DNA of 29,149 bases. Origin: a virus (lineage: Duplodnaviria; Caudoviricetes). A program made the position numbers and the translations under genes. Below the pieces are notes generated by a model that worked only from the letters and a program-made list of their open reading frames with translations, searched no databases and was not told the DNA's origin. This document shows positions 385-23,588 of this stretch, one piece after another. The stretch's first letter is position 1, and the number at the start of each line of letters is the position of its first letter. Where the stretch lies: positions 1-29,149 of IMG/VR virus record IMGVR_UViG_3300048574_000482; one strand, written 5' to 3'.

Positions 385-684
385 ATGGAAAACACCGAAG
401 CATCAATAATGATTTGCGGATTGCCATATAGAATTATTTATCGAGATAGAAATTCTCGTTCAGACATGTCAATGGGGCGATGCGATTCAAAGGAATTGAC
501 AATACACATCGACAAGGAAATGCCAGAGGAGCAGCGTAAGGCAACACTTTGCCACGAATGGATTCATGCTGTACTCGATGCAAATGGAGTAGAGCATCCT
601 GAATCAGTAGCGGCTGTGCTTGGAACGGAATTGTATAGATCAGGGTTTGAGCCCTGGAAGAAACCTGACAACGGTTTAAACTAG
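385..684 (+). CDS. Small zincin-like metallopeptidase (HExxH; ImmA/IrrE-like phage protein)
   Basis: Motif TLCHEWIHAVL preceded by GRCD...TIHID; SD GGAGG upstream. Confidence 0.75.
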   Translation: MENTEASIMICGLPYRIIYRDRNSRSDMSMGRCDSKELTIHIDKEMPEEQRKATLCHEWIHAVLDANGVEHPESVAAVLGTELYRSGFEPWKKPDNGLN

Positions 685-7761: not shown

Positions 7762-8742
7762 ATGGCAACTCTCAATCAGATAGACCAGCTGACCGCGCTC
7801 GAAGTGACTCGGCGCGCGAATGCCGGTGAGGCATTCAACATCATCGAGGCAATGGTGCAGACGAACCAGATGCTCATGGACATGCCCGCGATCCCGGCGA
7901 ACGACGGAACGGTTCACAACACCGTAATCCGCACGTCACAGCGCGCGGGATCCAAACGCCTCTATAACCAGGGCATCGTCGGCGGAGCGACCACCACGAA
8001 AACGATCCTCGACCGGATCGCGACGCTGCAGGATTATTCGATCGTCGACGCCGATCTCGTGAAGGACTCCGGAAATCCCGAGGCCCTGCTCATGAGCGAG
8101 GACATCGGATTCCTCAACGGCATGGGTGCCACGCAGGCGGACGATCTCATCCACGGCGACAACGCGCTTGACCCTGCTTCGATCAACGGATTCATGACCC
8201 GTCTTTCGTCCCTCGCGGACACCGATAACGTGTTCAATGCCGGCGGCACCGGATCGAGCTGCAGCTCGATTTATGTGTGCGCGCTCGGTCCCCGCTTCTG
8301 TCATCTCATCTTCCCCAAAGGCGCAGCAGGCGTAGGCGTCTCTCGCGAGGATCTTGGACGCCAAAACTGGAACATGGGTACCGATAGCAACGGCAAGCAG
8401 CTCACCATGCCCGCGTACGTCCGGTTCTACTCCGCTAAATATGGTCTCGCGATCCCGCACCCGAAGGCGGTCAAGCGCATCGCGAACATCTCGGCCGCAG
8501 TAACGGGCGACACGATCGTCGACAAGATCATCGAGGCGCTCTGGAGACTCCCTGAAGGAACAACGAACGTCGCTATCTATGGAAATGTCGACGCTATGGT
8601 GAAGATCGACAAGGCCGGTTACAACAAGGCCAACGCCGTGTACACCAAGGAAGATCCCTGGGGAAATGTCATTACCCATGTCCGGAATGGACGCTGCCGC
8701 ACCGTGAACGCGATCACGAGCAACGAGGCGGCCATCTCGTAA
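7762..8742 (+). CDS. Major capsid protein (BPP-1 Bbp17-like HK97-type fold)
   Basis: 326 aa, strong SD AGGAGG, motifs ANDGTVHNTVIRT, RLYNQG, VKRIANI, C-terminal AITSNEAAIS. Confidence 0.88.
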   Translation: MATLNQIDQLTALEVTRRANAGEAFNIIEAMVQTNQMLMDMPAIPANDGTVHNTVIRTSQRAGSKRLYNQGIVGGATTTKTILDRIATLQDYSIVDADLVKDSGNPEALLMSEDIGFLNGMGATQADDLIHGDNALDPASINGFMTRLSSLADTDNVFNAGGTGSSCSSIYVCALGPRFCHLIFPKGAAGVGVSREDLGRQNWNMGTDSNGKQLTMPAYVRFYSAKYGLAIPHPKAVKRIANISAAVTGDTIVDKIIEALWRLPEGTTNVAIYGNVDAMVKIDKAGYNKANAVYTKEDPWGNVITHVRNGRCRTVNAITSNEAAIS

Positions 8743-8771
8743 CGAAGCCCGCCGGGCGGGCTTCGCCCGGC
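8743..8771 (+). promoter_or_regulatory. GC-rich hairpin(s) after the major capsid gene
   Basis: CGAAGCCCGCC/GGCGGGCTTCG (8743-8765) and overlapping GCCGGGCG/CGCCCGGC (8751-8771); no U-tract follows. Confidence 0.55.
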
Positions 8772-8786
8772 AAAGGAAAAACAAGC

Positions 8787-9173
8787 ATGAATGTCGGACC
8801 CGACGCAAAACTGAAAGTATGGGACGCGAAAGCCATCACGGCTACCGCGTATTCCGATTCCATCGTGTTCGCCGACGACGCGAACAACGCCGCGAGGATG
8901 CAGTTCGATATCCGCGTAAACGAGGCGTTCGTGACGTCGAATGCCGGAACGGTCATCTTCAGCATCCAGGATTCCCCGGATGGAACGACCTGGACCGACC
9001 GTGTGGTCTCTCCCTCGTTCGCCCCGGCCGGACTTCCGAAGAGCTCCGGAGGAGAGGCGCCGATTCATCTCGCCATTCCCCGCGGTCTCAAGAAGAATCT
9101 CCGGATTGCCGCGACGGTGACGAACGCGTTCACTGCCGGCAAGGTCACCGCGATCCTCAGCACGGAGAATTGA
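8787..9173 (+). CDS. Capsid cement/decoration protein (Bbp16-like)
   Basis: 128-aa beta-rich protein after the capsid gene; AITATAYSDSIV, IQDSPDGTTWTD, FTAGKVTAIL. Confidence 0.75.
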   Translation: MNVGPDAKLKVWDAKAITATAYSDSIVFADDANNAARMQFDIRVNEAFVTSNAGTVIFSIQDSPDGTTWTDRVVSPSFAPAGLPKSSGGEAPIHLAIPRGLKKNLRIAATVTNAFTAGKVTAILSTEN

Positions 9174-9174
9174 T

Positions 9175-9360
9175 ATGGCAGGACCTGAAGCATCGAACAG
9201 CAAAAAGCGTGCGCTGACCGGCGTCAAGACGTGCGTGTGCACGGCAAAATGCGTGTACGACGGCATCCGGTATTTCGAGGGTGAGACGATCACCGTGCCG
9301 GACACCGAGAAGGCGCCTGATCATTTTGCCGACGTTCCCGACGGGGACGCTGGCGAATAA
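9175..9360 (+). CDS. Small putative virion protein
   Basis: 61 aa, begins just after the previous stop and ends before a terminator-like hairpin; CVYDGIRYFEGETITV. Confidence 0.6.
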   Translation: MAGPEASNSKKRALTGVKTCVCTAKCVYDGIRYFEGETITVPDTEKAPDHFADVPDGDAGE

Positions 9361-9369
9361 CCAACCTGC

Positions 9370-9398
9370 AGGACTCCGGGGATTGCCCGGAGTCCTTT
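9370..9398 (+). terminator. Probable weak intrinsic terminator ending the head transcript
   Basis: 11-bp stem AGGACTCCGGG/CCCGGAGTCCT, loop GATTG, short T-run. Confidence 0.6.
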
Positions 9399-9414
9399 CG
9401 CGACGAGGTACCGA

Positions 9415-10026
9415 ATGAACGTTGATCTTGCGATCGCAAATCGCGCGTTATCGAAAGCAGGCCAAGACGAAATCGAGGCCGGCGATACCACCAGCAAAGC
9501 AGCGCGGCTCATATCCAAGTTCTGGCTTTCGACGCTCCTCGTCGCCCTTGCGGACGTTCCCTGGACCAGCGCAAAACGGCGTGTTTCCCTCATGATCGAC
9601 GCCGGAGAGAACCTCACCGCGTTCGCGTACAAGTATTCCATGCCGATCGACTGCGCCCGAGCCCTCGAGCTTCAGGGAAACGAGTATTTCGTAATCGAAG
9701 GGGAGTTCCTTTTCACCAATCAGGAAGCGGCACAGCTCCTGTACATTACGAACGGCCGGCTCGCCCCGGCAAGCTATATAGTCGGGGACACGTGGCCCGA
9801 GTATGCCCAGCTGATATATGAACCTTTTTTCTGGCAATACTACGAGACCAAACTCGCCGCGCAGATCGCTTTCGAGCTTACGGGAAAATCCGATCTCTTC
9901 AGCACGCTGTATACGGAAGCACAGCAGATCGCGGTCGCCGGAGAGAAAGCATCGAAGTCATCCGGGGCCGCGAAGAAGAACGGGAATGAACTCTGGATGG
10001 ATTCTGTCTGGAGGAAGATGTGCTGA
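9415..10026 (+). CDS. Tail tubular protein A / head-tail adaptor (T7 gp11-like)
   Basis: IANRALSKAG, PWTSAKRRVSL, YKYSMPIDCAR, KLAAQIAFELTG; position and size fit. Confidence 0.8.
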   Translation: MNVDLAIANRALSKAGQDEIEAGDTTSKAARLISKFWLSTLLVALADVPWTSAKRRVSLMIDAGENLTAFAYKYSMPIDCARALELQGNEYFVIEGEFLFTNQEAAQLLYITNGRLAPASYIVGDTWPEYAQLIYEPFFWQYYETKLAAQIAFELTGKSDLFSTLYTEAQQIAVAGEKASKSSGAAKKNGNELWMDSVWRKMC

Positions 10027-12227
10027 TCACTTCATTTTCAGCCGGCGAGCTTTCTAAAAAACTGTTTGGGCGGGTCGATCTTCCGCTCTACGCATCGGGC
10101 GCCGCACGAATCGAGAATTTCGAAGTCGTACCGACGGGCGGGCTCGTACGCCGTCCGGGAACTCGCCGGCACGGCTCGCTTGCCGGGCCCTGCAGGCTCA
10201 TTCCTTTTATCGTCAACTCGACCAATTCCTTTTTATTGGAAATTGGATCGACGTATATATATATTTGGCAAAATGGAACGCTATTAAAATCTGATGGCGG
10301 CGTTCCGATACGATTCAGCTCGTCGGATACCATGCCTTTATATTCCTCTCTCGAGGAAATCAAGGAAATCCAGTATGCCCAAACTTTTAATGAAATCTAT
10401 CTCGTTCATCGTAATTACCCACCCTATAAAATTGCATGGGCAGGCGGAACGACATTTGAGCTCGTCAAGCTGACATTTACAGGGAATGTCGACGAGATTC
10501 CTTTTCAGACTACGCAAAATTATCCAGGCGTAATTACTTTTTTCAATGGCAGGCTCTGGCTTGGAAGTACGATCAGCGAGCCTCAAAAGATTTGGGCAAG
10601 CAAACCTTTTGATTATACAAATTTCGTGCAGTACGAAACGGTCATCACGAATAGTACGAGAATCCGCGATCCTGATTTACATATTTTTACGGCTTCAATT
10701 ACCGAGGGAGAATCACTCCTGACCGGAACAACCCAGGATTTATCCACATTAGACACTGTCAATGACGCAAAGATTGACCGTCATGTTTTCCTGGGAAAAG
10801 CAGTAAAAGGTGGGTATGAACTCACATATTATGGTGATGATCTTTCCTGGATATCAAATCAAATCAATTACTACATATCCGGAACCGGTATTACACCGGG
10901 AACGAAAGTAAAAAAAATTACCAAAACAACTATTTTGATGGATATGCAAGCTTCGGTATCATCGGATCCCGGGTCTTTCTCAATTCAGCTCGTAGAAACA
11001 GCCCACTCGCTTACCGATTATTATGTTACTGGCCCGGGCATAGATATTGGTACGAAAGTGCTCGCCGCGTCGATCAATACGTTGTCTATCAGTACAGCAG
11101 CGAAAAAAACAAGTGCTTTTGCTATTTTTTCCATTCAACTTTGGAGAGATGCTGACTCAGCGTCTTCCAGTGATTATGATACCATTTATTTTTCAAATGA
11201 CGTTACGGCTTCAGGTTCAGCCTTTCAATTTGAGATCGCGAGCGATAAGAACGACGGAATAAAATGGATGTGCTCTCAGAACGATCTTATCATCGGAACT
11301 GAATCGAGCGAATGGATCGTGCCTGCATCAGTAACCGCGATAAATATTCAAGCGGTTCTGAATACGCGAAACGGTTCTGCCGGAATCCAGGCCGTTATGA
11401 TAGGTCCATCAACTATGTTCTTTCAGCAGGGTGGCCGATCGCTGCGGGAATATTTTTATCAGGTGGATAATACCAGGTATTTATCACAGAACTTGACCGC
11501 ATGGAATCCAGAACTATTAGAGGAATCACCCGCTATTGATTTCGATTATACGAACTCTCCGAGCCCGCGGGCAATCATAACTCGTAAAGATGGAAAACTC
11601 GGCGCACTCATTTACGAAAAAGATCAGGCCGTAGCGGCATGGTACCGCATCGTTCTTGCCCGTGGATTAGCTCGCAGTACCGCAACGGTTCCAGCAGAAA
11701 GTGGCGTTGATATGATCTATTTTGCCATTCAGGACGGAGAATACTGGTATCTCGAGTCGCTTGCTGACGATGACCTTATATTCATAGATCATTACCAGTC
11801 CATTCCCATTACCGCCGGACAGTCTGTCGATTATAGTGGGCTCGGGTATGACGTAACGGCGGAAATCTTCAATGCGACGACGAAAAAGATCGTGCCAGTT
11901 ACCGCGATTCCCGTTGATTTCTACACATCAGGCGATGTGTGTTTCATCGGATACCGATACGACTCAACGGTCGAGTCGCTTCCTGTCGTCAAGGATGGAT
12001 CGAATAACCAAAAACGAATCATTTCGGTCACGCTACGTTTGCTCGAATCCGCGATCCCGTATGTATCGAGTGGCAAGGCAGAGGAGCTTCCGAACCATGT
12101 TGCTCCTTACTCCGGGATTGTAAAGGTCCCAGTGCCTTCAGATTGGAGTACCGATGTTTTTTTTAAAGTACGCACAAATGAACCGGCCCCCTGTACGGTT
12201 CTCGCTCTGAACATAGATATCCAGTGA
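10020..12227 (+). CDS. Tail tubular protein B / nozzle (T7 gp12 / P22 gp10-like)
   Basis: SFSAGELS..LFGRVD, GGLVRRPGT, FFNGRLW, LIIGTESSEW, RSLREYFY; carries an internal nested repeat. Confidence 0.85.
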   Translation: MLITSFSAGELSKKLFGRVDLPLYASGAARIENFEVVPTGGLVRRPGTRRHGSLAGPCRLIPFIVNSTNSFLLEIGSTYIYIWQNGTLLKSDGGVPIRFSSSDTMPLYSSLEEIKEIQYAQTFNEIYLVHRNYPPYKIAWAGGTTFELVKLTFTGNVDEIPFQTTQNYPGVITFFNGRLWLGSTISEPQKIWASKPFDYTNFVQYETVITNSTRIRDPDLHIFTASITEGESLLTGTTQDLSTLDTVNDAKIDRHVFLGKAVKGGYELTYYGDDLSWISNQINYYISGTGITPGTKVKKITKTTILMDMQASVSSDPGSFSIQLVETAHSLTDYYVTGPGIDIGTKVLAASINTLSISTAAKKTSAFAIFSIQLWRDADSASSSDYDTIYFSNDVTASGSAFQFEIASDKNDGIKWMCSQNDLIIGTESSEWIVPASVTAINIQAVLNTRNGSAGIQAVMIGPSTMFFQQGGRSLREYFYQVDNTRYLSQNLTAWNPELLEESPAIDFDYTNSPSPRAIITRKDGKLGALIYEKDQAVAAWYRIVLARGLARSTATVPAESGVDMIYFAIQDGEYWYLESLADDDLIFIDHYQSIPITAGQSVDYSGLGYDVTAEIFNATTKKIVPVTAIPVDFYTSGDVCFIGYRYDSTVESLPVVKDGSNNQKRIISVTLRLLESAIPYVSSGKAEELPNHVAPYSGIVKVPVPSDWSTDVFFKVRTNEPAPCTVLALNIDIQ

Positions 12228-12235
12228 GGTGAAAA

Positions 12236-13111
12236 GTGGGTTGGTTCAGTGATTTTGTTGATGACGTAGAAGATGGCTGGGATGAACTTACCGGAAAAAC
12301 CGCTGCTGAAGATGCTCAAGATGAGATCAAGGCTCAGTCAAAAGCTGAACAAATTCGTCGTGAAGCAGAGATTAAAGCAAAAAAAGAATCTGCTGAGCGC
12401 GATATTGCGTATGCACAAGCTCAGTTTGACATCGAAACTCAAGATGCCCTCAAAAAAGCAGATGAGATAAATCAACAGGGCGAAAAAGTAGACGCGAACG
12501 CGACAAATCAGGAATCTCTTGTCAACGAAGCGTATAGCCAGAATATGAAGAAGCTCGGCACTACTGCCGATCAGATGGCTCTCGCCGAACAACAAACAAA
12601 AATCAGCCAAGAACAACAGGGCTCTGCATTAATGGCGGCCTTGGGAGGGTCCGGAACCCGTTCCGGGTCAACTGCCGCAAAGGTTTTGGTTCAAAATGAG
12701 CAAGTTTTTAACCAAAGCCTCAATCAGACAAAACGATCTGTTCAGGCTGATGAAGCCTATTCCTTGTCCTCAATGTATCAGAATCTTTCAAATCAGAAAC
12801 AGACACTCGGAGAGGCTCGTCAATCGGCACAACAGGCCTATACTGACGCTACACAGCTCAAGAGTGATTATTCAGAAGGTGGCAGAGCAATTAATTTGTT
12901 CAGCCAGAACATATCAAATCGCCGACAAGATCTCGATTCGACGATCAACCTGATGAATCTCGCAGGAAATCTGCAGCAGGATGCTTATAGCCGCGCGTAC
13001 GATCGAGCGAAATTCACGTTTGTAGATGGTTTCACCAATATTCTCACCTTAGCTAATGGTGCAATGAATACAGGTGAAAATATTTATAAATTCAGCTCAA
13101 TGTTTGCCTGA
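12236..13111 (+). CDS. Internal virion (ejection) protein, small
   Basis: GTG start after GAGG; helical Gln/Ala-rich; ALGGSGTRSGST; follows the nozzle gene. Confidence 0.65.
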   Translation: MGWFSDFVDDVEDGWDELTGKTAAEDAQDEIKAQSKAEQIRREAEIKAKKESAERDIAYAQAQFDIETQDALKKADEINQQGEKVDANATNQESLVNEAYSQNMKKLGTTADQMALAEQQTKISQEQQGSALMAALGGSGTRSGSTAAKVLVQNEQVFNQSLNQTKRSVQADEAYSLSSMYQNLSNQKQTLGEARQSAQQAYTDATQLKSDYSEGGRAINLFSQNISNRRQDLDSTINLMNLAGNLQQDAYSRAYDRAKFTFVDGFTNILTLANGAMNTGENIYKFSSMFA

Positions 13112-13122
13112 TAGAGGTTAAT

Positions 13123-15201
13123 ATGGGACAACATACTCTCGCCGATGCCTTGATGGCGGTATTTCAGACAACCAATACGGGTATCGATATTGCCTACCAG
13201 GTAAACATGGAGAAGGCAAAGAGTGAATTACAAAAATGCGACCTCGAAATGAAAGAGGCATACAACGAATATTTGGTCAATATCAATGGCCGATCAGACT
13301 TTGAAAACTTTCAGAATGATTGGGACGAAAAAAAAACCGAAACCTATAATGACATTATGTCAAAACTTTCGAGCCCTTACGCAAAAAAAGTCGCAGCAAA
13401 TCAGTTTAACCAGATGGATCTCGAACAGAAATACGCAATCCAGAGCGTTGTGACGAAACGAAAGGCTGACGTCACGTTGACGGACAATGCTAATTACCGG
13501 AACGCGATCGTCGCGAGTACTGCGTACACCGGCGATGAAAAGCGTCAGATCATGCAGGATTCCCGCCGGTCGGAATATGAATCCGGGTTGACCACTTATC
13601 AGGATTACGATCTTGGTTTGAGAAAAGATGGAGCCTCGCTTGCGTATACCGAGCTGGCTAAAATTGGTCGCAATTTTATGCAGCAAGGAGATCTAGCCGG
13701 GGCTCTTGATTCTGTTGACAAGTCGGAATTCAAATACCTGTTGCCGGACGGGAAGGAAATGCCGATCGATGCGATCAAACAACAGGTGAAAATGGATCTG
13801 CAAAATGAATGGGATACTGTTACCGAGAAAAAACAAGCAGCAAAAGCAAGTGAACTATCAGAAGATCTTGCCCAGTGTTTGGCTACGGGTGACCTAAATT
13901 ATGCTCGCCAAGGTATGGCAAAGATTCTGAAATGGACTGGCGATAATCTTTCGGAAGTAAAGAGAACCGAGTTCTCCGAGAAGTTTTCGAGCCTGCTCGA
14001 TCCGAAAAGCGACAAGGGCGCTGCACATTCAAAGATCCTTCAGGACATGCTCCAGTTCAACATGCAGAAAACGTTGAATCTCGTGTTTCAAGGAGAGAAA
14101 AATAAGAACGATCCGAACGCAGGGTACATCAATGCTAAAACAGGATTTGAGGCACTTACCGCAATCGGCACCAAGCTCCTGGAAGATGCTGGCGGCGGCG
14201 ACCCTGCATCGCTTGAACTGTTTGAAAAACTCAAAGGTGATTTCTATAGTGAGTTTGAGAAAATGATTCCGTCGAATTCCCCGGCGATCGCAAGCAAGGT
14301 CTCGCAGATCAAGGATCAGGCGAAGACCCTTGCCGCAAAAGCGATGGGATTCTCGGACGAAAAGGAACTCGACAAGAAGGCAACGACGGAACAGCGTGAG
14401 GCGTATTCGAATGCTCTTTCGTATCTCGATGGACGTGTGTGGGATGCCATGATGTCCATGAACATGGCGACCGTCAAGCCTGAAGATTTCGACAAAGTGG
14501 TCAATAACATTCTCGTTGCGTCGTTCTCCAAGCAGCTGGAGATCATCAAGAAATATCCGGATCAGCCGACCAATTTCGTTCGGAAAGGACTTGAATCGAG
14601 CGACAATGTTGCGGCGAGGTACATCGGCGCCGTAAATGACAATCCCGATCTCGCGTATGTCGATACGAAGGGCCATGAACAATGGCTGCCGGGAGTCAAG
14701 GAAGGGACTGAAGAATTCCGGAAGTGGGGAATCGACAGCATATCGGCCGCAACCGGTATTCCGGCAAAGGAAATTTCGGGAGCACCGGAGCTCAAGGACG
14801 GCGGCCGCGACATCGACGCGTCCATGATCTTCACGGCCCGTGGAAAGCAGTACAAGTATTTCGTTGATGGCGGAAAGCCGGTCCTCCGATCCCGGAGCGA
14901 CGGCGGCGAGTTTATGCCAATCTCAGGTGGATCGCCTAGCACGCGCGGAGAAGCGGACAAGGCGCAGAAAGACCAGAAGAAAGCTACCTATCAGGAGAAC
15001 ACGTCTCGAGCGGCCGATATCATCGATGCGAACCTTCAGACGTTGCTCAATGCACCAATGCCCGGGAAGAGCGGAAAGACCTGGATGGAATCCTACGACA
15101 ACCCACGCGCCGCGCTCGAGTCGTGGTCCGTCACCGATCCGGCCGGATTCATCGAATGGCAGAAAACCGTCAAAACAAAAAGAAAGAGCGGAGGACGATA
15201 A
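13123..15201 (+). CDS. Internal virion (ejection) protein, medium
   Basis: 692-aa helical protein in the gp15-equivalent slot; TAATG overlap with the next gene. Confidence 0.6.
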   Translation: MGQHTLADALMAVFQTTNTGIDIAYQVNMEKAKSELQKCDLEMKEAYNEYLVNINGRSDFENFQNDWDEKKTETYNDIMSKLSSPYAKKVAANQFNQMDLEQKYAIQSVVTKRKADVTLTDNANYRNAIVASTAYTGDEKRQIMQDSRRSEYESGLTTYQDYDLGLRKDGASLAYTELAKIGRNFMQQGDLAGALDSVDKSEFKYLLPDGKEMPIDAIKQQVKMDLQNEWDTVTEKKQAAKASELSEDLAQCLATGDLNYARQGMAKILKWTGDNLSEVKRTEFSEKFSSLLDPKSDKGAAHSKILQDMLQFNMQKTLNLVFQGEKNKNDPNAGYINAKTGFEALTAIGTKLLEDAGGGDPASLELFEKLKGDFYSEFEKMIPSNSPAIASKVSQIKDQAKTLAAKAMGFSDEKELDKKATTEQREAYSNALSYLDGRVWDAMMSMNMATVKPEDFDKVVNNILVASFSKQLEIIKKYPDQPTNFVRKGLESSDNVAARYIGAVNDNPDLAYVDTKGHEQWLPGVKEGTEEFRKWGIDSISAATGIPAKEISGAPELKDGGRDIDASMIFTARGKQYKYFVDGGKPVLRSRSDGGEFMPISGGSPSTRGEADKAQKDQKKATYQENTSRAADIIDANLQTLLNAPMPGKSGKTWMESYDNPRAALESWSVTDPAGFIEWQKTVKTKRKSGGR

Positions 15202-18200
15202 TGGGCGACTTTAACGACAGATTCAGCATCACGCGCAATGATACCGGCGAAAAGGTACGAAAGCTCCCCGATTTCCCGACCGCTCCCAAGCCGGCGGCCG
15301 TCGCCACTGATCAGGTCGCGCCCGCAGCGCCAGCATCGGCTGATCCCCCTTCTAATACCCCGATCAAGAAGCAGATGGAGACGGAAACGGCCGCGAAGGC
15401 AGCTCCGCTCAAGAGCGTCGCGCTCGATCCGGACGTCGCCGCATCCCAGGAGCGCGACGCCGCGAAGGCGGCGAATGTCGACCGGTATCAGGTCGATGTG
15501 CCCGACCAGTACTACAAGGTGTTCGGCGATTTCATCGCAAATTCGGATGATCCCACAGCCACCGCCTACCGGCTCGGAACGGCGTGGCGCTACACCCAGA
15601 TGTACGATATGTCTTTCGAGGACGCGTACAAGAACATCGAAAATCTCAATCAGGCGCTCCTGGGTGATCGCCAGTACTCGACGGCGAAGGATAATTTCTC
15701 GGCCGTATCGGACGCCTGGAAACTCGGGCTCAATGTCGTTCGCCGCGGCGCACTCGGAACAAATCTCGCGATTGCCGAGGATAACGGAAACCCGTACGAA
15801 ATCGACCGGATCCGGAAAGAGGTTGCGGCAGTGGACGGAGAAAACACCGGGCTTGAGGACCGTCAGCCTCGCGCCTGGTACGTTGAGGCGCTAAAATTCG
15901 GCGCCCAGTCGGCGCCCTTCACCGGAGCGGCAATCGGAGCAGGCCTCGTGGGCGGTCTTTTCGGACCGGTCGCCGCCGGAGCGTCAGCATTCGCAGTATC
16001 CATGCAGAATGCCCAAGGGTCGGAATACCTTGATCTCCGGAGCGAGGGAGTCGAGCCGGACCTTGCCCGAAACCTGTCGATCGCCTCAGGAAGTCTGCAG
16101 GCAGTCGTCGAGGTCGCTCTCGGTAATACCGCAAGCGTTGTCGGAAAGGCGGCGGGCGTCGAGACGATCACGTCGAACCTCTTCAAGCGGCTGCACGTCA
16201 CCGGAGCATGGACGCGCGCCGCGCGGGTCATCGGAGAATATAGCGGCGAAGCGGTCGAAGAAGGAGTCGAAGAGGCGCTGCAGGATCTCATCAGTTCAGG
16301 ATCCCAGGCGCTCGCGGCCGAGCTGCAGGGCCACGGAGTTGAACAGAAAACGGCGAACGAAGTCGCGCAGTCTGCCTGGGAAAACTTCCGGGGCGGCTTT
16401 CTCGGGTCGCTGGTGCTCGGCGTTGCCGGCGCGGGAATCAACGCACATACGGAAGTACGCGACGCGATCGCGCTCAAGGACGCTTCGGTCTCGATGGACT
16501 CGAAAGAGGCGTTTATCAAGGAGACCGCCGCAAGCCCGGCATTCGAGGGGCTCACCGATGCGGATCGCGCCGAGGTGCAGTCGAAGATATGGGATGCCGC
16601 CGCGACGAAGCGTGACGCGCGAATCAATGCGAGCGCTGCCGATATCGCTTCCGGCGCCGACTTTGCCGGTGAAAGCGAAACTGAAACCGTATCGGAGACT
16701 CCCGCGCCGCGTGGAGCCGTGCAGCGGACATCCGAGGGAAAACTGCACCTGCAGGAAGGAAAGGACGTCATCCAGAACAATGACGGATCGTCGACCCGGA
16801 TCCTGAAAGTCGGAAATCCGAACGAGGAAACGAGTTACAACCGGTACGGCTACATCAAATTCCGCGAGTATGACGACAAAGTCGTCGTCGACGATTTCCG
16901 CATGTCTCCAGGCCGGGAAAACATCAAGCGCGAGTTTTTCGACGAGTTCACATCGCGCTTCTCCGGCAAGAATGTCGAATGGGAACCTCGCAGCGAAAGC
17001 GGAAAGGCATTCGTGAAACAAGTCGTCGCCGGGAACCCCGCCGGGAGTTCCGCCGGTCTCCAGTATTACCATGACGTCGACGCCGGCACCGTCCGGGGTC
17101 GGGTGAAGCTCGATAACCAGATTAAGCAGTTTCTCCCGCGTCTCGACGAAAACGAGCGGGCCGCCGCCGTTGCCCTCCTCGAGACTCGCGCATCCGTAAA
17201 GGGACAGGACCTCGAAACCTACCTCGGGGAAACCTTTCATCCGACCGTATTTTCGGACTCGAAAACGGTCATTCCTGAAGCGGCACAGAGTGCAGGAATC
17301 GATTCTCGGGGAGTGAAAGGCGGTGTTGCGTTCCCGAAGGACGACATCTCGGGATCCGCGAAAGCACTCGTGTACGTGACGCAGAACTCGGATTTTTCGA
17401 CCTATACGCACGAGATCGCGCACGTGTTCCGGCGGGAGATGAGCGGCGACGACCTCGCGGAAGCCGAGCGCGCGTTCGGTGTGACAGACGGCTCCTGGTC
17501 CCGGGACGCCGAGGAACGTTTCGCTGTCGGCTTCGAGGAGTATCTCCGCGAAGGTAAGGCGCCCACCACGGCGCTCGAAAGCTTGTTCCGAAAGATGGCC
17601 GAATTCCTCCACCGGATCTACAACGCACTCGCCGCGCGGGTCGAGGTGAGCCCTGACATCAGGCACGTATACGACAAGCTTATCGCCGGCGCGGGGCCGC
17701 TCGCGGAGATCGAGACGTCGGCGCGGTCCGGGAAGAGCGTGGGAAGAGAAGAGACCGGCGATACCGCCGGGAGAATGACTGGACAGAAGAAGACCGAAAA
17801 CCTCACCCAAACGGTAGAGACGGCTCAGGAAGGGCCAACCGCGCAAGGCGACATCGATGCGGATCAGTCGCTCGCTGATGCGTCAAAATCGATCCTCGAC
17901 GAAGCTGGATCGATTTATTCAACGATCCCCGATGACATGTTTTTTCAGGCGGCTGCTGTAAAGAAACTCCTCGAGCACATGAGCCGGGAGGAGCTCATCG
18001 AAATTTTGCATACGAGCGACTCTGCCGGCGGCGTCCCGAATTATCGAGCGTATAGGAGAGACATCGAACAGGATGGAGCGTGGCCGGTTCAAGTTTCGCT
18101 CGATGCCGACAGCCTCAAATGGGTCAACGACAACATGGGTCATGCCTCGGGAGATCTCATGCTGAAGGAAATCGGCGAGACGATGCGTGACTATGCGGAC

Positions 18201-21200
18201 GGTTCAGGTGTTCGTATTTACCACAAATCTGGAGACGAGTTTTTAGCGCAGGCAAAAACTGTCAACGAATACATGAAATTCAAAGTGGCACTTGATAATC
18301 GTTTGAAAGGAGTTATAATTACAGTACGCGATGCTCAAGTCGGTGCAACAATCGAGAAACCGGGGATTTTCCTCTCCGATGGAATCGACAACAAGGGGGA
18401 CATGAATGCCGCAGATAAAAACCTTGAACCTGAAAAATCTTACCGAGAGGATCATGGCGAAAGGGCTGGACGAGGTAAGATCCCGCCCGGAGTCCGAATC
18501 GTTTATGACGACGGACGGATTAGTGACGATAACTCGGTCCAAGAATACTTCGACTCCCGCGCAGAAGAGATAAAAAAAAGAACCGCTGAAAATAACGCTC
18601 CAACCAATCAATTTACCCCGTCAAGGACCCGCGAACTTCGGAAAATCATTGAAGACGGCGGGGAAATTCTTTTCCAGTACATAGGCAACACCGCCGACTT
18701 ATCGAACCAGGAAACGAAAAACTTATCGATCGCGAAACGAATGCTCGAGGACTCGAAGGATATGGAGACCATCAGGCTCGCTACGGGATGGTTTCAGGGA
18801 CTCAAGGATAAAAAATGGCGATATGAAATCAGCGATAAAAACTCAACGTTCCTTCAAAAGGATATATCCGAAAAATCTGTAGATCTTTCTTCTGTTCTGA
18901 TTTTTCCGGAGTTATATAAAAAATATCCCGAAGCGAAACAGATTAAAGTCACTTATTTACCGAAACAAATCGATGAAGGCAGGATTAGTGCTGCCTACGG
19001 GCGCGGCGACGACGGAAAAAAATATATTCTTGTCAGCCGTCATCAGCCGAACCAGTGGGAACTCCAAAAGGCAATAACTCATGAACTGCAACATTGGATC
19101 CAGGAAAAGGAGGGGTTCGCCGATGGCGCTAATCTTGATGAACTCGAGGGCGAAAAAATCGATTTCAAGGACTTGGAAAAGCAATGGAATATCGTAAGTA
19201 CTGCATGGAATATTAAAAGGGATCTGTCTCGCCCGGATAATACTGCAAATCTCGACGAAATCATTGGTATGTATGAGGATTTGCAGGGCCACCAGATCGA
19301 TTATCAAATTCCTCATTTGATAAATTCAAAGACTGTTGAGGAATTGGGCAAAGAAGCGAAATCTCTTCGTGAGCAGGTAGAAACGAGCAAATTCTATAAG
19401 TACACACCATATCAAATGTATATGAATTCCGCTGGAGAAATCGAAGCGCGCGACATTGAATCCCGCTATGGACTATCCGACGAGCAGCGGAAATATATCA
19501 AGCCAGTTCATACAACCGAGAAATATCAAGCAGATATGCTTTTCCAGACCGACGAGGAACTCATCAAAGACGCCTCGACATTCGAATCATGGCAGAACTT
19601 CATGGAATACTACGAGGATTCTCCGTTCCGGCCGGACGACGCGGCAGTACCGGAGAACGTTGATGCTCAGTGGTATCAGACCGTATGGGAAAAGGCTCAT
19701 GGAATAATACCTGAAGAATCACTGAACGCCGAAGAAATGGCGTCGCGCGCGGCCGCAGATTCCGTCGCCCCCGGAAGTCCCGACACCCAGGACGCGCTCT
19801 GGCTCGCCGAAATGCAGCACAAGCCCGCCGAGCTCGATTCCTTCCTTCGTCGCATCAACGACATTCTGACCACGAAAAACGATTTTGCGCCCGCAGACGC
19901 CACCGAGCAGCAGGATATGGAGAATACCGAGCGGCTCAAGAGACGGATCACCACGGAGCTCCGGCACGGCTCCTGGATCAGCAACGCGACCCGCGTCGCT
20001 GCCGGCCGCGAGCTGACCGAGAAGGCCCGCCGGACGCTCATCAGCCTCATGCGCGGTGCCGCGCGGGATTACCGCGCGCTTTACGCCGACCTCATGGAGG
20101 ATCCCACCTGGTCCGTCGCGCTCGCCGATACCGATGCCGGCAAGCTCGCCTCGATCGCCGACCCCAAGCTCGATTACTCGGAAATGTCACCCGAGCAGCG
20201 CCGGAAGATCGCGGACCGGATCGAGAACGCCGAGATCGCCCGGAAGCTTAAATCGGGAGAGCTGACCTTCGACGAAGCGCAGCGGCATATCGCGTACCTC
20301 AACAAGGAGCTGAAGGCAAGCGAGACGCGCGAACGCGAGGTACTGAAGCAGCTTGCCGACGAGAAAAACGAAACGAGCGAAGACTACCGGCGGATATCCG
20401 ACTGGGAAACGCGACAGCTTTTGAAGGCGAACGAAGAATTCCTCATGGCTAAGGCGCGTTACACCGCCCGGAACGACAAGACCGCGCGCATGATCGAGCG
20501 CGGTCAGGCGATCACGAAGAAATACGAGCTCGAGAGCCAGCAGATCAAGGCAACCTACGACACGGTATTCCGGAAATTCTCCGATCTCATGAAGGCAAAA
20601 GAGATCTCCGGGGCAGTCGGAACCGCGCTCGCCCGCCGGGAATCTCTTTTCGAGGCACGAGCGGAGAACGCCCGGCTCCGCGAGCAGATCTCGGCCGCGC
20701 GGGAAGCCCGAAAAATCAGGCTTGGGCTTGCGAAGCGCACTATGCGACGCATTTCATTCGACCGGATCGACTACGAGTCCGCACGGAAGATCATCGCGAT
20801 TCAGCGCGCTTTCTTTCCGGCCATGCAGAAGGGACTCAATAAGTGGATCGGAACCGAAGGGCCGTATCTCCGCGAGGTTTATTCGAAGTGGAAAACGAGC
20901 GACGAGTACCGTATCGAACTCGAAAAGGATCTGAGTCACCGGAAAGGCGGCCGGAAGCTACTCGCCTTGCTCGACAAGGATTTTGATACCTGGACGCGAT
21001 CGGAACGCGAAGACGCGCTCGCGGTGCTACCGAAAGAGGATTGGGTTGCAGAGCTCAATCTCGACAAGCTCGCCGAGGAGCGCGAACAGGCGCTGCAGAT
21101 GGACGAGTCCACCGACGAGTACAAGAAGCTGCTCTCCGAAGCGCTCCCCTCCCGGATCGCGTCGAGAATCGAGAAACGGCCCTTCGCGGAATGGACCATC

Positions 21201-23588
21201 GAGGAAATGGAGGAGCTCGCCGGCGTGGTCGACAAGCTCTACAGCGACGGCCGCCGGATGCTCGAGGCGAAGAAACTTGCCCGGCGCAACGACTCTGCTG
21301 ATATCCGCGATCGCATCAAGAAGGTGATCAAGGATGCCGGCATCAACGAGGACGACAGCCCGGAAGAAAAGGAGCGGAAGCGCGCGGCATTCGAAAAAGA
21401 GCTTGGAATGAATCGGCAGGTCAAGGGAACGCTTGCCGATTCCGTGCAGCGCCAGTCATTCCAGAATCGTGTGCTCCGGAACGGGTATGCCGATGCCAAC
21501 GTCCGGCGCGTCGCGCGAATCCTCGACAACGGAAAAGACGGAATCAATACCGATCTCCTGTATAACCAGGAGGATTCCTGTTTCAATGAAAAGCACCGCC
21601 GGATCCGGGAGCGAACACGGAAGATCAACGCGGCAATGACCGCGGCCGGAGTGACGATCGACGAACTCTATCAGCCGATCGAGATCAAGGATTTTTATGG
21701 CCCGGGGGAGAGCCGGTCATTCACGGTCGACGAGCTCATTTTCGCGCTGAAGGCAGACGAGGACGACCAGAGCCGCGCCGCCGTGAAGTATGGAAATATG
21801 ATTGACGACAGCGAGAAGGATTCTTTCCGTGGAGAGGTCGACGGCGGCATCATCGAGAACATTGCCGCGCCGCGTTACAACGCAGTACTCGCGGCCGCCC
21901 GCGCGCTCGACCCGAAGTTTCTCACGTTCGCGGAATCGATCTCGGCCGACTATGCCGATCAGTACGAGCGACTGAACCAGGCATCAATCGAGGAATTCAA
22001 TCAGCCGGTATGGCGCGTCCAGAAATACGTTCCTCTCATGCGTCTCGAGAGCTCCGGTGACACGAACGAAAATCGTGTCCGCGACGATTTGCTCAACCTT
22101 TCCGGCGGCCGCAACCAGTCCGGGGCCGACAAGGGAATGACGCAGAAGCGCATAGAAATCGATCCACTCTATCAGCGGCCGGTGCAGATGGGACTGTATT
22201 CCACGTGGAACGATTCCGTCACCCGAACCGAGCACTTTGTCGCGTACGCGCCGTATGTCCGCGAACTCAATCGCGTGTATAAGAGCGTTGACGCGAGCAA
22301 CATGCGCGGCTGGATCCGCGCCCGCTACGGCGACAAGATGATTTCGTATCTCGACGACTACATCAATGAATGCGCGAACCCCGAGGCGATCAGTAAACAA
22401 AGTCAGCTCGACCGGATTGTCCGGACGCTCCGGGGCCGGACAGCGCCGGCGTATCTCGCTTGGAAGCTCTCGGGCGTTCTCAAGCAGTTTGTCACGAGCC
22501 CCGCACCGTATCTGACTTTCGTCTCGCCCGCCGAGTACGCCGCCGCCGCCTTCGACGTTGCGCGTAACTTCTCTACGCTGAGCGACACGATCCGCGAGAA
22601 AAGCGTATTTATGGATTCGCGCGTTATGGATCCAATTATCGACCTCATAAAGGAGCAGCAGGCGAAAGCCTCGAGCCCGCTCGCAGCGAAGTGGATGCAG
22701 ATCAGCGATATGGGCATGAAAGGGCTCGAATTCGCTGACTGGTCGTGCGTCGCTCCCGGATGGCTCGCGGTGTACCGGAAGACGCTTGCCCAGGCACAGC
22801 GCGAGAATGAGACGATCGTGCAGACTGAAACCACTCGACTGGAAAAGGAGAACGAGACACGGTCAGTTGAAACGATGCGGACTGCAGATGAGATCAAGGC
22901 GATAGCTGAAGGAAAGGTCCGATCGCTCGATGAACTCGAAGCGAGCGCGGTCAAGGCCGCCGACGACGCGACGCGTATGTGCCAGCCTTCGAGTCGCTTG
23001 GCCGATCTCGCCCCGATGTTCAAAGCGAAAGGAGAAAACACCGAAGCGCTGAAGATCATCACGCAGTTTCAGACGTCGCTCAATGTGATCTGGCAAAATA
23101 TTCGCTACGATTTGCCGGCCGCCGTTCGGGAAAAACAGTACCGGCAAGCCGTTGGCATAGTCGGCGGGTACATCGCCGCTGGCGTCGCGGTAAACCTCAT
23201 GACGCAGGGTCTCGCCGGGGGCGGCGGAGATGATGACGATTCCCTTTCCCGCGCCCGATCCCTCCTTTACTATTCGACTACGCAGTTCACAGATTCTGTC
23301 CCGCTCGTCGGCGACATGGTGACGAATCTCGCGCAAAAGGCGATAACTGGTAAAAAAGAGCAGCTGTTCGGAGACGATATGTTCCCCGCCGTGTCAAAGG
23401 TGCTGCAGGCAGGACAGGCCGCAACGTCCGGTGATTGGGATAGAACACTGCAGCGCTTCGGTGAGGGCATCGGTTACGGAATTGGTGCTCCGGTATCTGG
23501 CATCAAGGAAGCCGGCCGCGTGATCGGATTTAACGGAGAGGACGGTTCGTTCGATATGAGTCCGGACGCATTGATCGGAAGGAGATAG
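15201..23588 (+). CDS. Large internal virion / polyvalent protein (2795 aa) with GNAT-like, zincin, GGDEF and LPD23-zincin modules
   Basis: Start re-assigned to ATG 15201 (GGAGG at 15190-15194, TAATG coupling). Gly/Ala hydrophobic helices near both ends; HEIAH 17409-17423; SGDEF 18228-18242; TGWFQGLKDKKWRYEISD; HELQH 19080-19094 with GEIEAR. Confidence 0.85.
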   Translation: MGDFNDRFSITRNDTGEKVRKLPDFPTAPKPAAVATDQVAPAAPASADPPSNTPIKKQMETETAAKAAPLKSVALDPDVAASQERDAAKAANVDRYQVDVPDQYYKVFGDFIANSDDPTATAYRLGTAWRYTQMYDMSFEDAYKNIENLNQALLGDRQYSTAKDNFSAVSDAWKLGLNVVRRGALGTNLAIAEDNGNPYEIDRIRKEVAAVDGENTGLEDRQPRAWYVEALKFGAQSAPFTGAAIGAGLVGGLFGPVAAGASAFAVSMQNAQGSEYLDLRSEGVEPDLARNLSIASGSLQAVVEVALGNTASVVGKAAGVETITSNLFKRLHVTGAWTRAARVIGEYSGEAVEEGVEEALQDLISSGSQALAAELQGHGVEQKTANEVAQSAWENFRGGFLGSLVLGVAGAGINAHTEVRDAIALKDASVSMDSKEAFIKETAASPAFEGLTDADRAEVQSKIWDAAATKRDARINASAADIASGADFAGESETETVSETPAPRGAVQRTSEGKLHLQEGKDVIQNNDGSSTRILKVGNPNEETSYNRYGYIKFREYDDKVVVDDFRMSPGRENIKREFFDEFTSRFSGKNVEWEPRSESGKAFVKQVVAGNPAGSSAGLQYYHDVDAGTVRGRVKLDNQIKQFLPRLDENERAAAVALLETRASVKGQDLETYLGETFHPTVFSDSKTVIPEAAQSAGIDSRGVKGGVAFPKDDISGSAKALVYVTQNSDFSTYTHEIAHVFRREMSGDDLAEAERAFGVTDGSWSRDAEERFAVGFEEYLREGKAPTTALESLFRKMAEFLHRIYNALAARVEVSPDIRHVYDKLIAGAGPLAEIETSARSGKSVGREETGDTAGRMTGQKKTENLTQTVETAQEGPTAQGDIDADQSLADASKSILDEAGSIYSTIPDDMFFQAAAVKKLLEHMSREELIEILHTSDSAGGVPNYRAYRRDIEQDGAWPVQVSLDADSLKWVNDNMGHASGDLMLKEIGETMRDYADGSGVRIYHKSGDEFLAQAKTVNEYMKFKVALDNRLKGVIITVRDAQVGATIEKPGIFLSDGIDNKGDMNAADKNLEPEKSYREDHGERAGRGKIPPGVRIVYDDGRISDDNSVQEYFDSRAEEIKKRTAENNAPTNQFTPSRTRELRKIIEDGGEILFQYIGNTADLSNQETKNLSIAKRMLEDSKDMETIRLATGWFQGLKDKKWRYEISDKNSTFLQKDISEKSVDLSSVLIFPELYKKYPEAKQIKVTYLPKQIDEGRISAAYGRGDDGKKYILVSRHQPNQWELQKAITHELQHWIQEKEGFADGANLDELEGEKIDFKDLEKQWNIVSTAWNIKRDLSRPDNTANLDEIIGMYEDLQGHQIDYQIPHLINSKTVEELGKEAKSLREQVETSKFYKYTPYQMYMNSAGEIEARDIESRYGLSDEQRKYIKPVHTTEKYQADMLFQTDEELIKDASTFESWQNFMEYYEDSPFRPDDAAVPENVDAQWYQTVWEKAHGIIPEESLNAEEMASRAAADSVAPGSPDTQDALWLAEMQHKPAELDSFLRRINDILTTKNDFAPADATEQQDMENTERLKRRITTELRHGSWISNATRVAAGRELTEKARRTLISLMRGAARDYRALYADLMEDPTWSVALADTDAGKLASIADPKLDYSEMSPEQRRKIADRIENAEIARKLKSGELTFDEAQRHIAYLNKELKASETREREVLKQLADEKNETSEDYRRISDWETRQLLKANEEFLMAKARYTARNDKTARMIERGQAITKKYELESQQIKATYDTVFRKFSDLMKAKEISGAVGTALARRESLFEARAENARLREQISAAREARKIRLGLAKRTMRRISFDRIDYESARKIIAIQRAFFPAMQKGLNKWIGTEGPYLREVYSKWKTSDEYRIELEKDLSHRKGGRKLLALLDKDFDTWTRSEREDALAVLPKEDWVAELNLDKLAEEREQALQMDESTDEYKKLLSEALPSRIASRIEKRPFAEWTIEEMEELAGVVDKLYSDGRRMLEAKKLARRNDSADIRDRIKKVIKDAGINEDDSPEEKERKRAAFEKELGMNRQVKGTLADSVQRQSFQNRVLRNGYADANVRRVARILDNGKDGINTDLLYNQEDSCFNEKHRRIRERTRKINAAMTAAGVTIDELYQPIEIKDFYGPGESRSFTVDELIFALKADEDDQSRAAVKYGNMIDDSEKDSFRGEVDGGIIENIAAPRYNAVLAAARALDPKFLTFAESISADYADQYERLNQASIEEFNQPVWRVQKYVPLMRLESSGDTNENRVRDDLLNLSGGRNQSGADKGMTQKRIEIDPLYQRPVQMGLYSTWNDSVTRTEHFVAYAPYVRELNRVYKSVDASNMRGWIRARYGDKMISYLDDYINECANPEAISKQSQLDRIVRTLRGRTAPAYLAWKLSGVLKQFVTSPAPYLTFVSPAEYAAAAFDVARNFSTLSDTIREKSVFMDSRVMDPIIDLIKEQQAKASSPLAAKWMQISDMGMKGLEFADWSCVAPGWLAVYRKTLAQAQRENETIVQTETTRLEKENETRSVETMRTADEIKAIAEGKVRSLDELEASAVKAADDATRMCQPSSRLADLAPMFKAKGENTEALKIITQFQTSLNVIWQNIRYDLPAAVREKQYRQAVGIVGGYIAAGVAVNLMTQGLAGGGGDDDDSLSRARSLLYYSTTQFTDSVPLVGDMVTNLAQKAITGKKEQLFGDDMFPAVSKVLQAGQAATSGDWDRTLQRFGEGIGYGIGAPVSGIKEAGRVIGFNGEDGSFDMSPDALIGRR

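Follow-up and report, generated by a model that had tools for sequence, protein, structure and literature searches.

A GGDEF cassette in a giant, probably ejected phage protein

The GGDEF domain of the giant gene

We analyzed a 29,149-nucleotide stretch of DNA from a virus (Duplodnaviria; Caudoviricetes), positions 1 to 29,149 of IMG/VR record IMGVR_UViG_3300048574_000482 and hereafter the window, which carries on its plus strand one giant open reading frame (ORF), 15123-23588. The original prediction, made from the letters of the window, held that this gene encodes a virion ejection protein with a built-in diguanylate-cyclase-like domain at 18000-18480, that is, a GGDEF domain of the kind that makes cyclic diguanylate (c-di-GMP). 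The gene and the features of its domain are as follows; the three motifs given by their start are read from the translation of ORF 15123-23588.

15123..23588, plus strand: giant polyvalent-type protein gene in the presumed internal virion protein D slot; 2,821 aa from GTG 15123 (database version 2,810 aa, from ATG 15156)
17949..18677, plus strand: GGDEF cassette, 243 aa; GC content at third codon positions (GC3) 0.51, against 0.71-0.73 in the backbone
17952..18008, plus strand: two short N-terminal helices, kept across the clade; candidate dimerising stalk
from 18018, plus strand: DSAGGVPNYRAY motif
18018..18047, plus strand: altered wide turn, DSAG followed by Asn-Tyr-Arg, where canonical enzymes have DxLT
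from 18096, plus strand: SLDADSLKWVNDNMGHASGDLMLKEIG motif
18102..18155, plus strand: DADSLKWVND..GH..GD, with metal Asp 18102, Lys 18117 and guanine-binding Asn 18126 and Asp 18153
18201..18242, plus strand: GSGV at the place of the RxxD inhibitory site (I-site), 18201-18212; His 18222; SGDEF 18228-18242
from 18408, plus strand: AADKNL helix
18435..18491, plus strand: invariant Lys (18435) and clade-specific tail K..RE..G.R..RG..PPG

All motifs on which the prediction drew lie in frame within this ORF, and the stretch 17949-18677 is a GGDEF domain with the diguanylate-cyclase fold. The HMMER search of Pfam that had been proposed as a check scored this module at 32.5 bits against GGDEF (PF00990, E = 9e-8; curated cut-off 23.8 bits), with 27.8 bits for the whole protein, and the domain gave 16 matches at E <=0.01 to sequences of solved diguanylate cyclases. 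The pattern DxDxxKxxNDxxGHxxGD arose in none of 10,000 shuffles of the giant protein, the pentamer [SGA]G[DE]EF alone in 188 of 10,000. An AlphaFold model of the domain (58-row alignment) reached a predicted local distance difference test score (pLDDT) of 95.4, and Foldseek matches to it were led by WspR, SiaD, DgcB and PleD (E = 1e-8). Against a set of 48,161 chains, VIA-align matched SiaD at Z 15.9, with a root-mean-square deviation (rmsd) of 6.2 over 158 residues when the N-terminal helix is counted, while the domain core gave Z 14.9 (rmsd 2.6 over 138 residues); the top 32 rows were all GGDEF-containing proteins (Z 15.9-11.7), and GTP cyclohydrolase III scored Z 11.5. These structural matches stop near residue 172, and most of the clade tail has no counterpart in them. 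Identity with mCpol or the Panoptes protein OptS was rejected, OptS scoring Z 9.3 against 15.9 for SiaD and the above-cut-off Pfam match being GGDEF.

The canonical cyclase set is present (D18102, K18117, N18126, D18153, the Asp-Glu of the motif and K18435), and the claim of intact metal-binding, guanine-binding and DE residues held, all of them standing in frame at the predicted places. The same is true of the reported lack of an RxxD I-site, in place of which stands GSGV, and of a sensor domain beside the GGDEF domain in the giant protein. Absent from the domain are an exact GG(D/E)EF preceded by Arg, the protein reading HKSGDEF, and the DxLT wide turn with a cross-dimer Arg, for which it has DSAG and Tyr. 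The predicted extent was right in that the domain is real but wrong at both borders: the conserved unit starts at about 17960 and its tail reaches about 18491, so both ends lie outside 18000-18480, and AADKNL, described as the terminal helix, is followed by strongly conserved sequence. Neither the Tyr at 18042-18044 nor the +1-frame ORF at 18406-18573, both described below, was part of that prediction. An independent contig of 1,992 nt from a wastewater run spans 16417-18407 with zero differences; the backbone-GGDEF junction is therefore not an assembly chimera, and that explanation is excluded.

A phage clade with its own residue pattern

A search of 1.84 billion cluster representatives, of which the best 150 matches were listed, found 397 clusters at 50% identity with E <=1e-10 and 2,653 with E <=0.001. 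The listed cluster relatives, further hits and the query made up an alignment of 160 rows, one of them a fragment, which we compared with the 30 best of 44 GGDEF domains in the host genome of the closest genome relative, a prophage described below. The relatives are mostly parts of very large proteins: 131 of 159 stand in proteins of at least 1,000 aa (median 2,238 aa), and among viral loci 46 of 53 domains fall within open frames of at least that length. Catalytic residues are almost invariant, with the metal Asp in 159 of 160 rows, Lys in 154, Asn in 159, the guanine Asp in 147, the C-terminal Lys in 160 and G, D and E of the motif in 159 each. All eight catalytic and substrate positions are intact in the window and, counting all rows, in 142 of 160, at a median identity of about 44%. 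At the column of the guanine Asp (18153 in the window), nine of the 160 members have Asn and two have Thr; these are better candidates for an altered product than the window protein.

Around this conserved core, the clade has marks that set it apart from host domains. Leu stands for Phe in 159 of 160 rows (Phe in 27/30 host domains), a characteristic Trp occurs in 147, His precedes the motif in 137 (Arg in 30/30 host domains) and Ser replaces the first motif Gly in 127 (Gly in 25/30). The RxxD I-site is found in 2 of 160 phage domains versus 27 of 30 host domains, and the Arg-rich tail pattern in 145 of 160 versus none of 30. The original prediction had taken the His and the Ser for oddities that could alter activity; they are the clade norm (126/160) and change as a pair. 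Specifically, the alignment holds 126 His/Ser, 19 Arg/Gly, 5 His/Gly and 1 Arg/Ser combinations, and in a FastTree phylogeny built without the two columns Arg is spread over 13 distinct groups; in 11 of these, all or most members carry Gly as well, and the number of events is approximate. Judged from these rows, the joint switching of His and Ser looks like a compensating structural pair, not decay.

A domain tree was built from MP1412, 53 rows sampled from the phage set, 30 host domains and 53 cellular ones; in it, all phage rows fell into one clade (support 0.999), together with three genome loci bearing the clade marks. Recent capture from the host was rejected on this separation. The module matched 53 phage records, mostly of Pseudomonas and Bordetella phages; an example of the solo gene is MP1412_43 (AFN39614.1), of 156 aa, in the same clade and adjoining an antirestriction gene. 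Since the clade includes this solo gene of cultured phages, the core of the cassette is a self-contained unit. MP1412_43 (L172, 4977-5447) lacks the beta-hairpin insert, stands directly before the antirestriction (KlcA) gene and is a ready laboratory model. Each of three further relatives (P0025, P0026 and P0027; 478-544 aa) has two stretches of similarity to the query; they look unlike fragments of giant proteins and may be tandem-domain forms.

The giant protein, its gene slot and a nested reading frame

The domain sits between a peptidase-like part of the backbone and a second cargo cassette, and the borders are marked by short linkers.

17409..17423, plus strand: HExxH motif HEIAH in a zincin-like backbone region that matches BPP-1 Bbp10
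17937..17948, plus strand: MFFQ linker, left border of the GGDEF cassette
18666..18677, plus strand: ILFQ linker, right border of the cassette
18678..19547, plus strand: next cargo cassette, ending in MLFQ; LPD23 at 18702-18851 (E = 1e-15) and a second HExxH at 19080-19094

The His, Glu and His of HEIAH are invariant in 14 orthologues, and a conserved N- and C-terminal backbone encloses the cassettes bounded by the FFQ, ILFQ and MLFQ linkers. The four closest orthologues (P0003-P0006) have the GGDEF cassette in common (62-77% identity over 243 aa); the slot after it holds LPD23 and HExxH in the window, an ART-like domain in three of the four and unannotated sequence in one. Nine more distant orthologues (P0162-P0170) gave no match to the GGDEF cassette, and of the eight scanned with Pfam seven carry ART, PBECR5, LPD3, LPD23 or RadC cargo and one gave no such match. 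The combination of GGDEF, LPD23 and two HExxH motifs in one chain, encoded among virion genes with cargo that differs between orthologues, is that of the polyvalent proteins of Iyer 2017 (PMC5512222). By its architecture the giant protein is a polyvalent protein in the sense of that paper, and the GGDEF domain a swappable cassette. No exchange of cassettes at the linkers was seen in contigs from 4 of 20 runs, which are short and uninformative on absence. A search with the C-terminal backbone matched one record, and its ESM Atlas matches were all viral clusters without a name, LPD39 and LPD38 being weak leads.

Several side observations concern this gene. Linkers of the form (M/I)(L/F)FQ (in the window 17937-17948, 18666-18677 and 19536-19547) border cargo cassettes in most orthologues and could be recombination joints or peptidase cut sites. 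The second cassette, with GC3 0.47, lies like the first well under the backbone. A +1-frame ORF with a TTG start (19456-19707, plus strand, 83 aa) extends across both the MLFQ linker and the last part of the LPD23/peptidase cassette and could be a second nested gene or chance; +1-frame ORFs at 15238-15894 (218 aa) and 16009-16806 (265 aa) in the GC-rich N-terminal backbone are probably an effect of codon bias.

The gene is preceded by a block of virion genes.

7762..15201, plus strand: context genes in BPP-1 order, comprising capsid, Bbp16-like, one tail gene each in the adaptor and nozzle slots and another two genes (291 and 692 aa) in ejection slots

The window reads capsid (Pfam GP7), Bbp16-like gene, small gene, tail genes of 203 and 735 aa, genes of 291 and 692 aa, the giant gene and then fibre-like genes, and the sizes correspond to those of the BPP-1 series bbp17, 16, 15, 14, 13, 12, 11, 10, 9 and mtd. 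As in BPP-1 and Carin1, the giant gene is the largest of the block and stands after the nozzle and before the fibres. In BPP-1, Bbp13 is tabulated as the nozzle and Bbp10 as a homolog of internal virion protein D (PMC4819975, Table 2), and this gene-for-gene order bears out the ejection-protein slot assigned by the original prediction. According to the abstract of the same paper, such virion proteins carry domains destined for the cytoplasm; in T7 and PhiM1 the protein of this slot is described as packaged as a tetramer (PMC11440229). The likeness to Bbp10 and the epsilon15-subgroup internal virion protein D (PMC4819975) lies in gene order, size class and a shared peptidase region, with the difference that sequence similarity covers only ~150 aa; BPP-1 was absent from the matches to the GGDEF module among the 40 listed of 53 records. 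Elsewhere in the window, a small ORF (385-684, plus strand) has weak IrrE/SprT-like metallopeptidase matches.

The closest genome relative, L062, has 66% identity and comes from a Spirochaetes metagenome-assembled genome (MAG); a 1.06-Mb contig carries it downstream of an integrase, with host genes, flagellar ones among them, on either side. That host genome has 44 GGDEF matches (one being the prophage's own), 14 EAL and 4 PilZ, and the window phage is, by this relationship, likely a temperate spirochaete phage. In a rough comparison of this one pair (dS ~2), the ratio of nonsynonymous to synonymous substitution rates (dN/dS) between the window and L062 was 0.12 in the core and 0.26 and 0.15 in the backbone. 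A metagenome scan with 17 loci found no close relative for more dN/dS pairs, full-length matches standing at 32-39%. The prophage itself (G001:C23 ~890900-930000, with L191, L062 and L192; ~40 kb, ends approximate) carries an integrase and a DNA adenine methylase and is inserted near flagellin, PilZ and HD-domain genes of the spirochaete MAG.

Across the end of the GGDEF domain runs a second reading frame.

18406..18573, plus strand: nested +1-frame ORF, 55 aa, with a Shine-Dalgarno-like AAGGGGG upstream; candidate partner or inhibitor

Its counterpart in L062 (10452-10619) has the identical start, stop, length and upstream AAGGGGG. Among 64 loci, 57 have the tail anchor, 44 of which show a +1-frame ATG ORF across it, with starts clustering at -86 (21) and -65 (14). 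For enrichment we used 54 loci, leaving out seven without the anchor, two solo genes and one duplicate: a +1 ORF of at least 45 codons was present in 41 of 54 versus 11.7 expected under synonymous recoding (tail probability 0 in 20,000, the loci being related and their independence therefore overstated). The +2 frame had none of this length in the 54 loci, and other anchors gave 177 of 1,987. A profile of the other 42 peptides scored the window peptide at 16.9 bits, above 500 of 500 shuffles, a score to which main-frame homology contributes. The two solo genes examined have no nested start at the family positions and keep the tail, which is therefore conserved for the cyclase frame. A single-sequence fold of the peptide was weak (pLDDT 73.6; predicted template modelling score, pTM, 0.42; helix and hairpin), and the ESM Atlas gave no usable match for the L003 nested peptide. 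On this family pattern the nested gene of the window is probably real; that its peptide inhibits the GGDEF enzyme is speculation. If the nested protein does inhibit, that would account for a cell tolerating the production of an unregulated cyclase while late genes are expressed, and it would be a naturally occurring small protein that blocks a GGDEF enzyme.

Predicted activity, product and delivery

We assign a probability of roughly 0.5 to the reading that the window encodes a swappable GGDEF cassette that is ejected into a likely spirochaete host, where it is predicted to act as a c-di-GMP synthase free of sensor and feedback. Very likely, a few copies of the giant protein would be packaged and later ejected, which would bring the cassette into the cytoplasm; the flanking HExxH peptidases may set it free. 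Copies would then probably dimerise by way of the short helices at the N-terminus and of the oligomeric parent protein, and link two nucleoside triphosphates; if the enzyme is active, c-di-GMP is quite likely its main product. The weakest steps are that a micromolar pulse may override the host c-di-GMP network before phage transcription and that its effect, most likely, would be to shut down motility or surface structures used by rival phages. More speculatively, and with less weight than these first steps, the nested 55-aa protein, made late and not ejected, might keep the enzyme off in the producing cell.

A cyclase dimer turns over about once per second, and the cellular GTP pool is millimolar. 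At this rate, two dimers would make ~600 molecules in 5 minutes, or ~1 uM in 1 fL. The original prediction had also offered a drain on GTP; this fails by the arithmetic and is implausible, since an enzyme delivered in a few copies by each virion would leave a millimolar pool practically unchanged. For signalling, ~1 uM would be enough. That an SGDEF domain can be active is supported by published enzymes, A/SGDEF being described as a class with verified activity (PMC8079147, PMC13725321). In Pseudomonas aeruginosa, c-di-GMP is reported to induce plzR, whose product removes pili and blocks adsorption of YuA (PMC11461919). Lysogens of LK3 are described as making more biofilm, in an account that annotates a GGDEF in LK3 and does not test that gene's own role (PMC8471281); the LK3 GGDEF matches the window clade.

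Several points weigh against this reading. The DxLT turn, the cross-dimer Arg and the pre-motif Arg are altered in the window, as are the Tyr that corresponds to DgcR Y286 and, four residues beyond the C-terminal Lys, an Arg, and the purified cytoplasmic SGDEF domain of MbaA is reported as inactive in vitro, though active in cells (PMC8079147). Similarity to Bbp10 is confined to the peptidase region (33% over ~150 aa, E = 2e-10), so the ejection slot rests mainly on gene order. The host assignment depends on one MAG relative at 66% identity. Taken alone, the nested ORF of the window is not significant (P = 0.33 by a loose test, 0.033 when start and stop must match exactly), and LP.G, a motif of 16 of 44 family peptides, is missing from its peptide. 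Finally, we found no assay of any phage-encoded GGDEF in the open literature, subscription papers being mostly outside the search.

The choice of product turns on the residue after the wide-turn Asn. Here the window has Tyr (18042-18044), which aligns with DgcR R147 (that is, N146 + 1; position from PMC8041772) and with Tyr304 of the Hypr enzyme GacA, and which in the clade is found only in the window and P0003-P0006 (5/160); Arg holds this cross-dimer position in 105 of 160 phage and 27 of 30 host domains. As reported for Hypr enzymes in PMC6456294, the cross-dimer Arg favours guanine and is present in 94% of predicted cyclases. Membership of the Hypr GGDEF group was rejected because its defining Ser/Thr at the Watson-Crick site is absent, Asp standing at 18153, although two Hypr traits are present, the central Asp of SGDEF and a non-Arg cross-dimer residue. 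Judged on these residues, c-di-GMP is the likeliest product; it is predicted as the main one since the protein retains the Asn and Asp that specify guanine. Relaxed base choice is a real alternative.

On that alternative, which we consider unlikely, an active cyclase would also make 3',3'-cGAMP (cyclic GMP-AMP) or c-di-AMP as a decoy that jams nucleotide-based immunity, for example by keeping a Panoptes-type effector repressed or by occupying effectors of cyclic-oligonucleotide-based antiphage signalling systems (CBASS). It would account for a Tyr exactly at the Tyr304 position of GacA, where the change Y304R is described as moving products towards c-di-GMP (PMC6456294), and for the central motif Asp, the state Hypr enzymes need, in 159 of 160 rows. 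The other cargo of these proteins, moreover, consists of conflict enzymes (ART, PBECR nuclease and RadC among the orthologues), the YuA-type solo gene adjoins an antirestriction gene, and in Panoptes decoy nucleotides are made by a related palm enzyme (PMC12657218). The missing Ser/Thr speaks against it, as GacA S348D, with its native Tyr304 kept, is an active diguanylate cyclase (PMC6456294, section 12), and so, weakly given an incomplete MAG, does the lack of SMODS or mCpol matches in the L062 host genome. A compound form, in which an ejected cyclase is paired with an overprinted 55-aa inhibitor left in the producing cell and the Tyr loosens base choice to give a decoy dinucleotide, strikes us as a long shot.

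Also improbable is that the domain is no cyclase and binds GTP or c-di-GMP, or poisons host cyclases through mixed dimers and so lowers c-di-GMP. The altered wide turn, the loss of the Y286-type dimer contact and the new Arg-rich tail would fit such a role, and degenerate GGDEF domains with binding-only roles are described in the literature. However, 142 of 160 divergent members retain the catalytic Lys, the metal ligands and the two residues that bind guanine, and a stoichiometric sponge of which each virion brings a few copies would presumably take up next to nothing. Less probable again is that the domain acts in the producing cell during late expression or assembly, the cassette being cut off before packaging or merely riding a structural gene. 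P1 DdrB is reported to be processed before packaging (PMC5512222), two HExxH motifs flank the cassette, and cultured phages carry the domain as a stand-alone 156-aa gene, so that virion delivery is not required for the domain's job; against this, 131 of 159 top relatives stand in proteins of at least 1,000 aa, as do 46 of 53 viral loci in frames of that size, and because fusion to giant proteins is repeated, delivery is the best explanation. A neutral or decaying host-derived insert, as the Pfam score (32.5 bits versus 119-172 for the 30 best host domains) and the GC3 below the backbone might suggest, is already contradicted by the separate clade (support 0.999), the strong conservation, the coupled His/Ser switching and the dN/dS of 0.12.

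The preferred reading, an ejected c-di-GMP synthase, has a precedent as a prediction. GGDEF domains in polyvalent proteins of phages and prophages were noted by Iyer 2017, with the suggestion that they may interfere with host nucleotide responses or rival elements (PMC5512222, section 22) and with Acetonema longum WP_004096050.1 as an example; the domain was called not very widespread there. The novelty that the original prediction implied for the fusion accordingly falls away, the same fusion and hypothesis having been in print since 2017 (PMC5512222). The likeness is close, as in both cases a giant protein of the late region joins GGDEF to LPD domains, to a zincin-like peptidase and, among orthologues, to ART, and injection was proposed; the difference is that a domain then described as not very widespread is found here in the 397 clusters given above. 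In Iyer 2017, whose supplements may hold an alignment of this clade, we found no residue-level account and no mention of the His/Ser pair, the tail, the Tyr variant or the nested gene. Nor did the open literature searched show us a description of the clade, the nested gene, the Tyr variant or the coupling of His and Ser.

Among other known systems, a solo YuA-type GGDEF gene is mentioned in PMC10333796 and PMC8471281. The solo domains of YuA-like Pseudomonas and Vojvodinavirus Bordetella phages belong to the same clade and likewise have DSLKW.ND, SGDEF and the tail, with neither sensor nor I-site; unlike the window domain, they are 156-aa genes beside an antirestriction gene, not virion-slot proteins, and they keep Arg at the cross-dimer site and before the motif, with no nested start at the family positions. 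PleD, DgcR, SiaD, WspR and MbaA have the fold, the metal Asp, Lys, Asn, Asp, DE and the C-terminal Lys in common with the window domain, which differs in several respects: it has no sensor and no RxxD, its wide turn reads DSAG, two conserved Arg are replaced by Tyr and His, Leu-Lys-Trp stands for Phe-Lys-x, and a tail is added. Hypr GacA resembles it in the Tyr at the cross-dimer base-reading site and in the central motif Asp (PMC6456294). YIP is a phage protein that switches on a host cyclase (PMC8085984), and known phage proteins soak up or cut immune nucleotides.

The Tyr-plus-Asp state of the window, which lacks the Ser/Thr of GacA at the Watson-Crick site, represents in nature the kind of intermediate that PMC6456294 proposed to link c-di-GMP synthases with cGAMP synthases, such a single change being named there as a step towards cGAMP synthesis. 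With a bounded cassette, a high-confidence fold and a solo version in cultured YuA-like phages, the 2017 prediction is now easy to test. If a virion-delivered synthase proves true, the phage would write a bacterial second messenger before expressing a gene.

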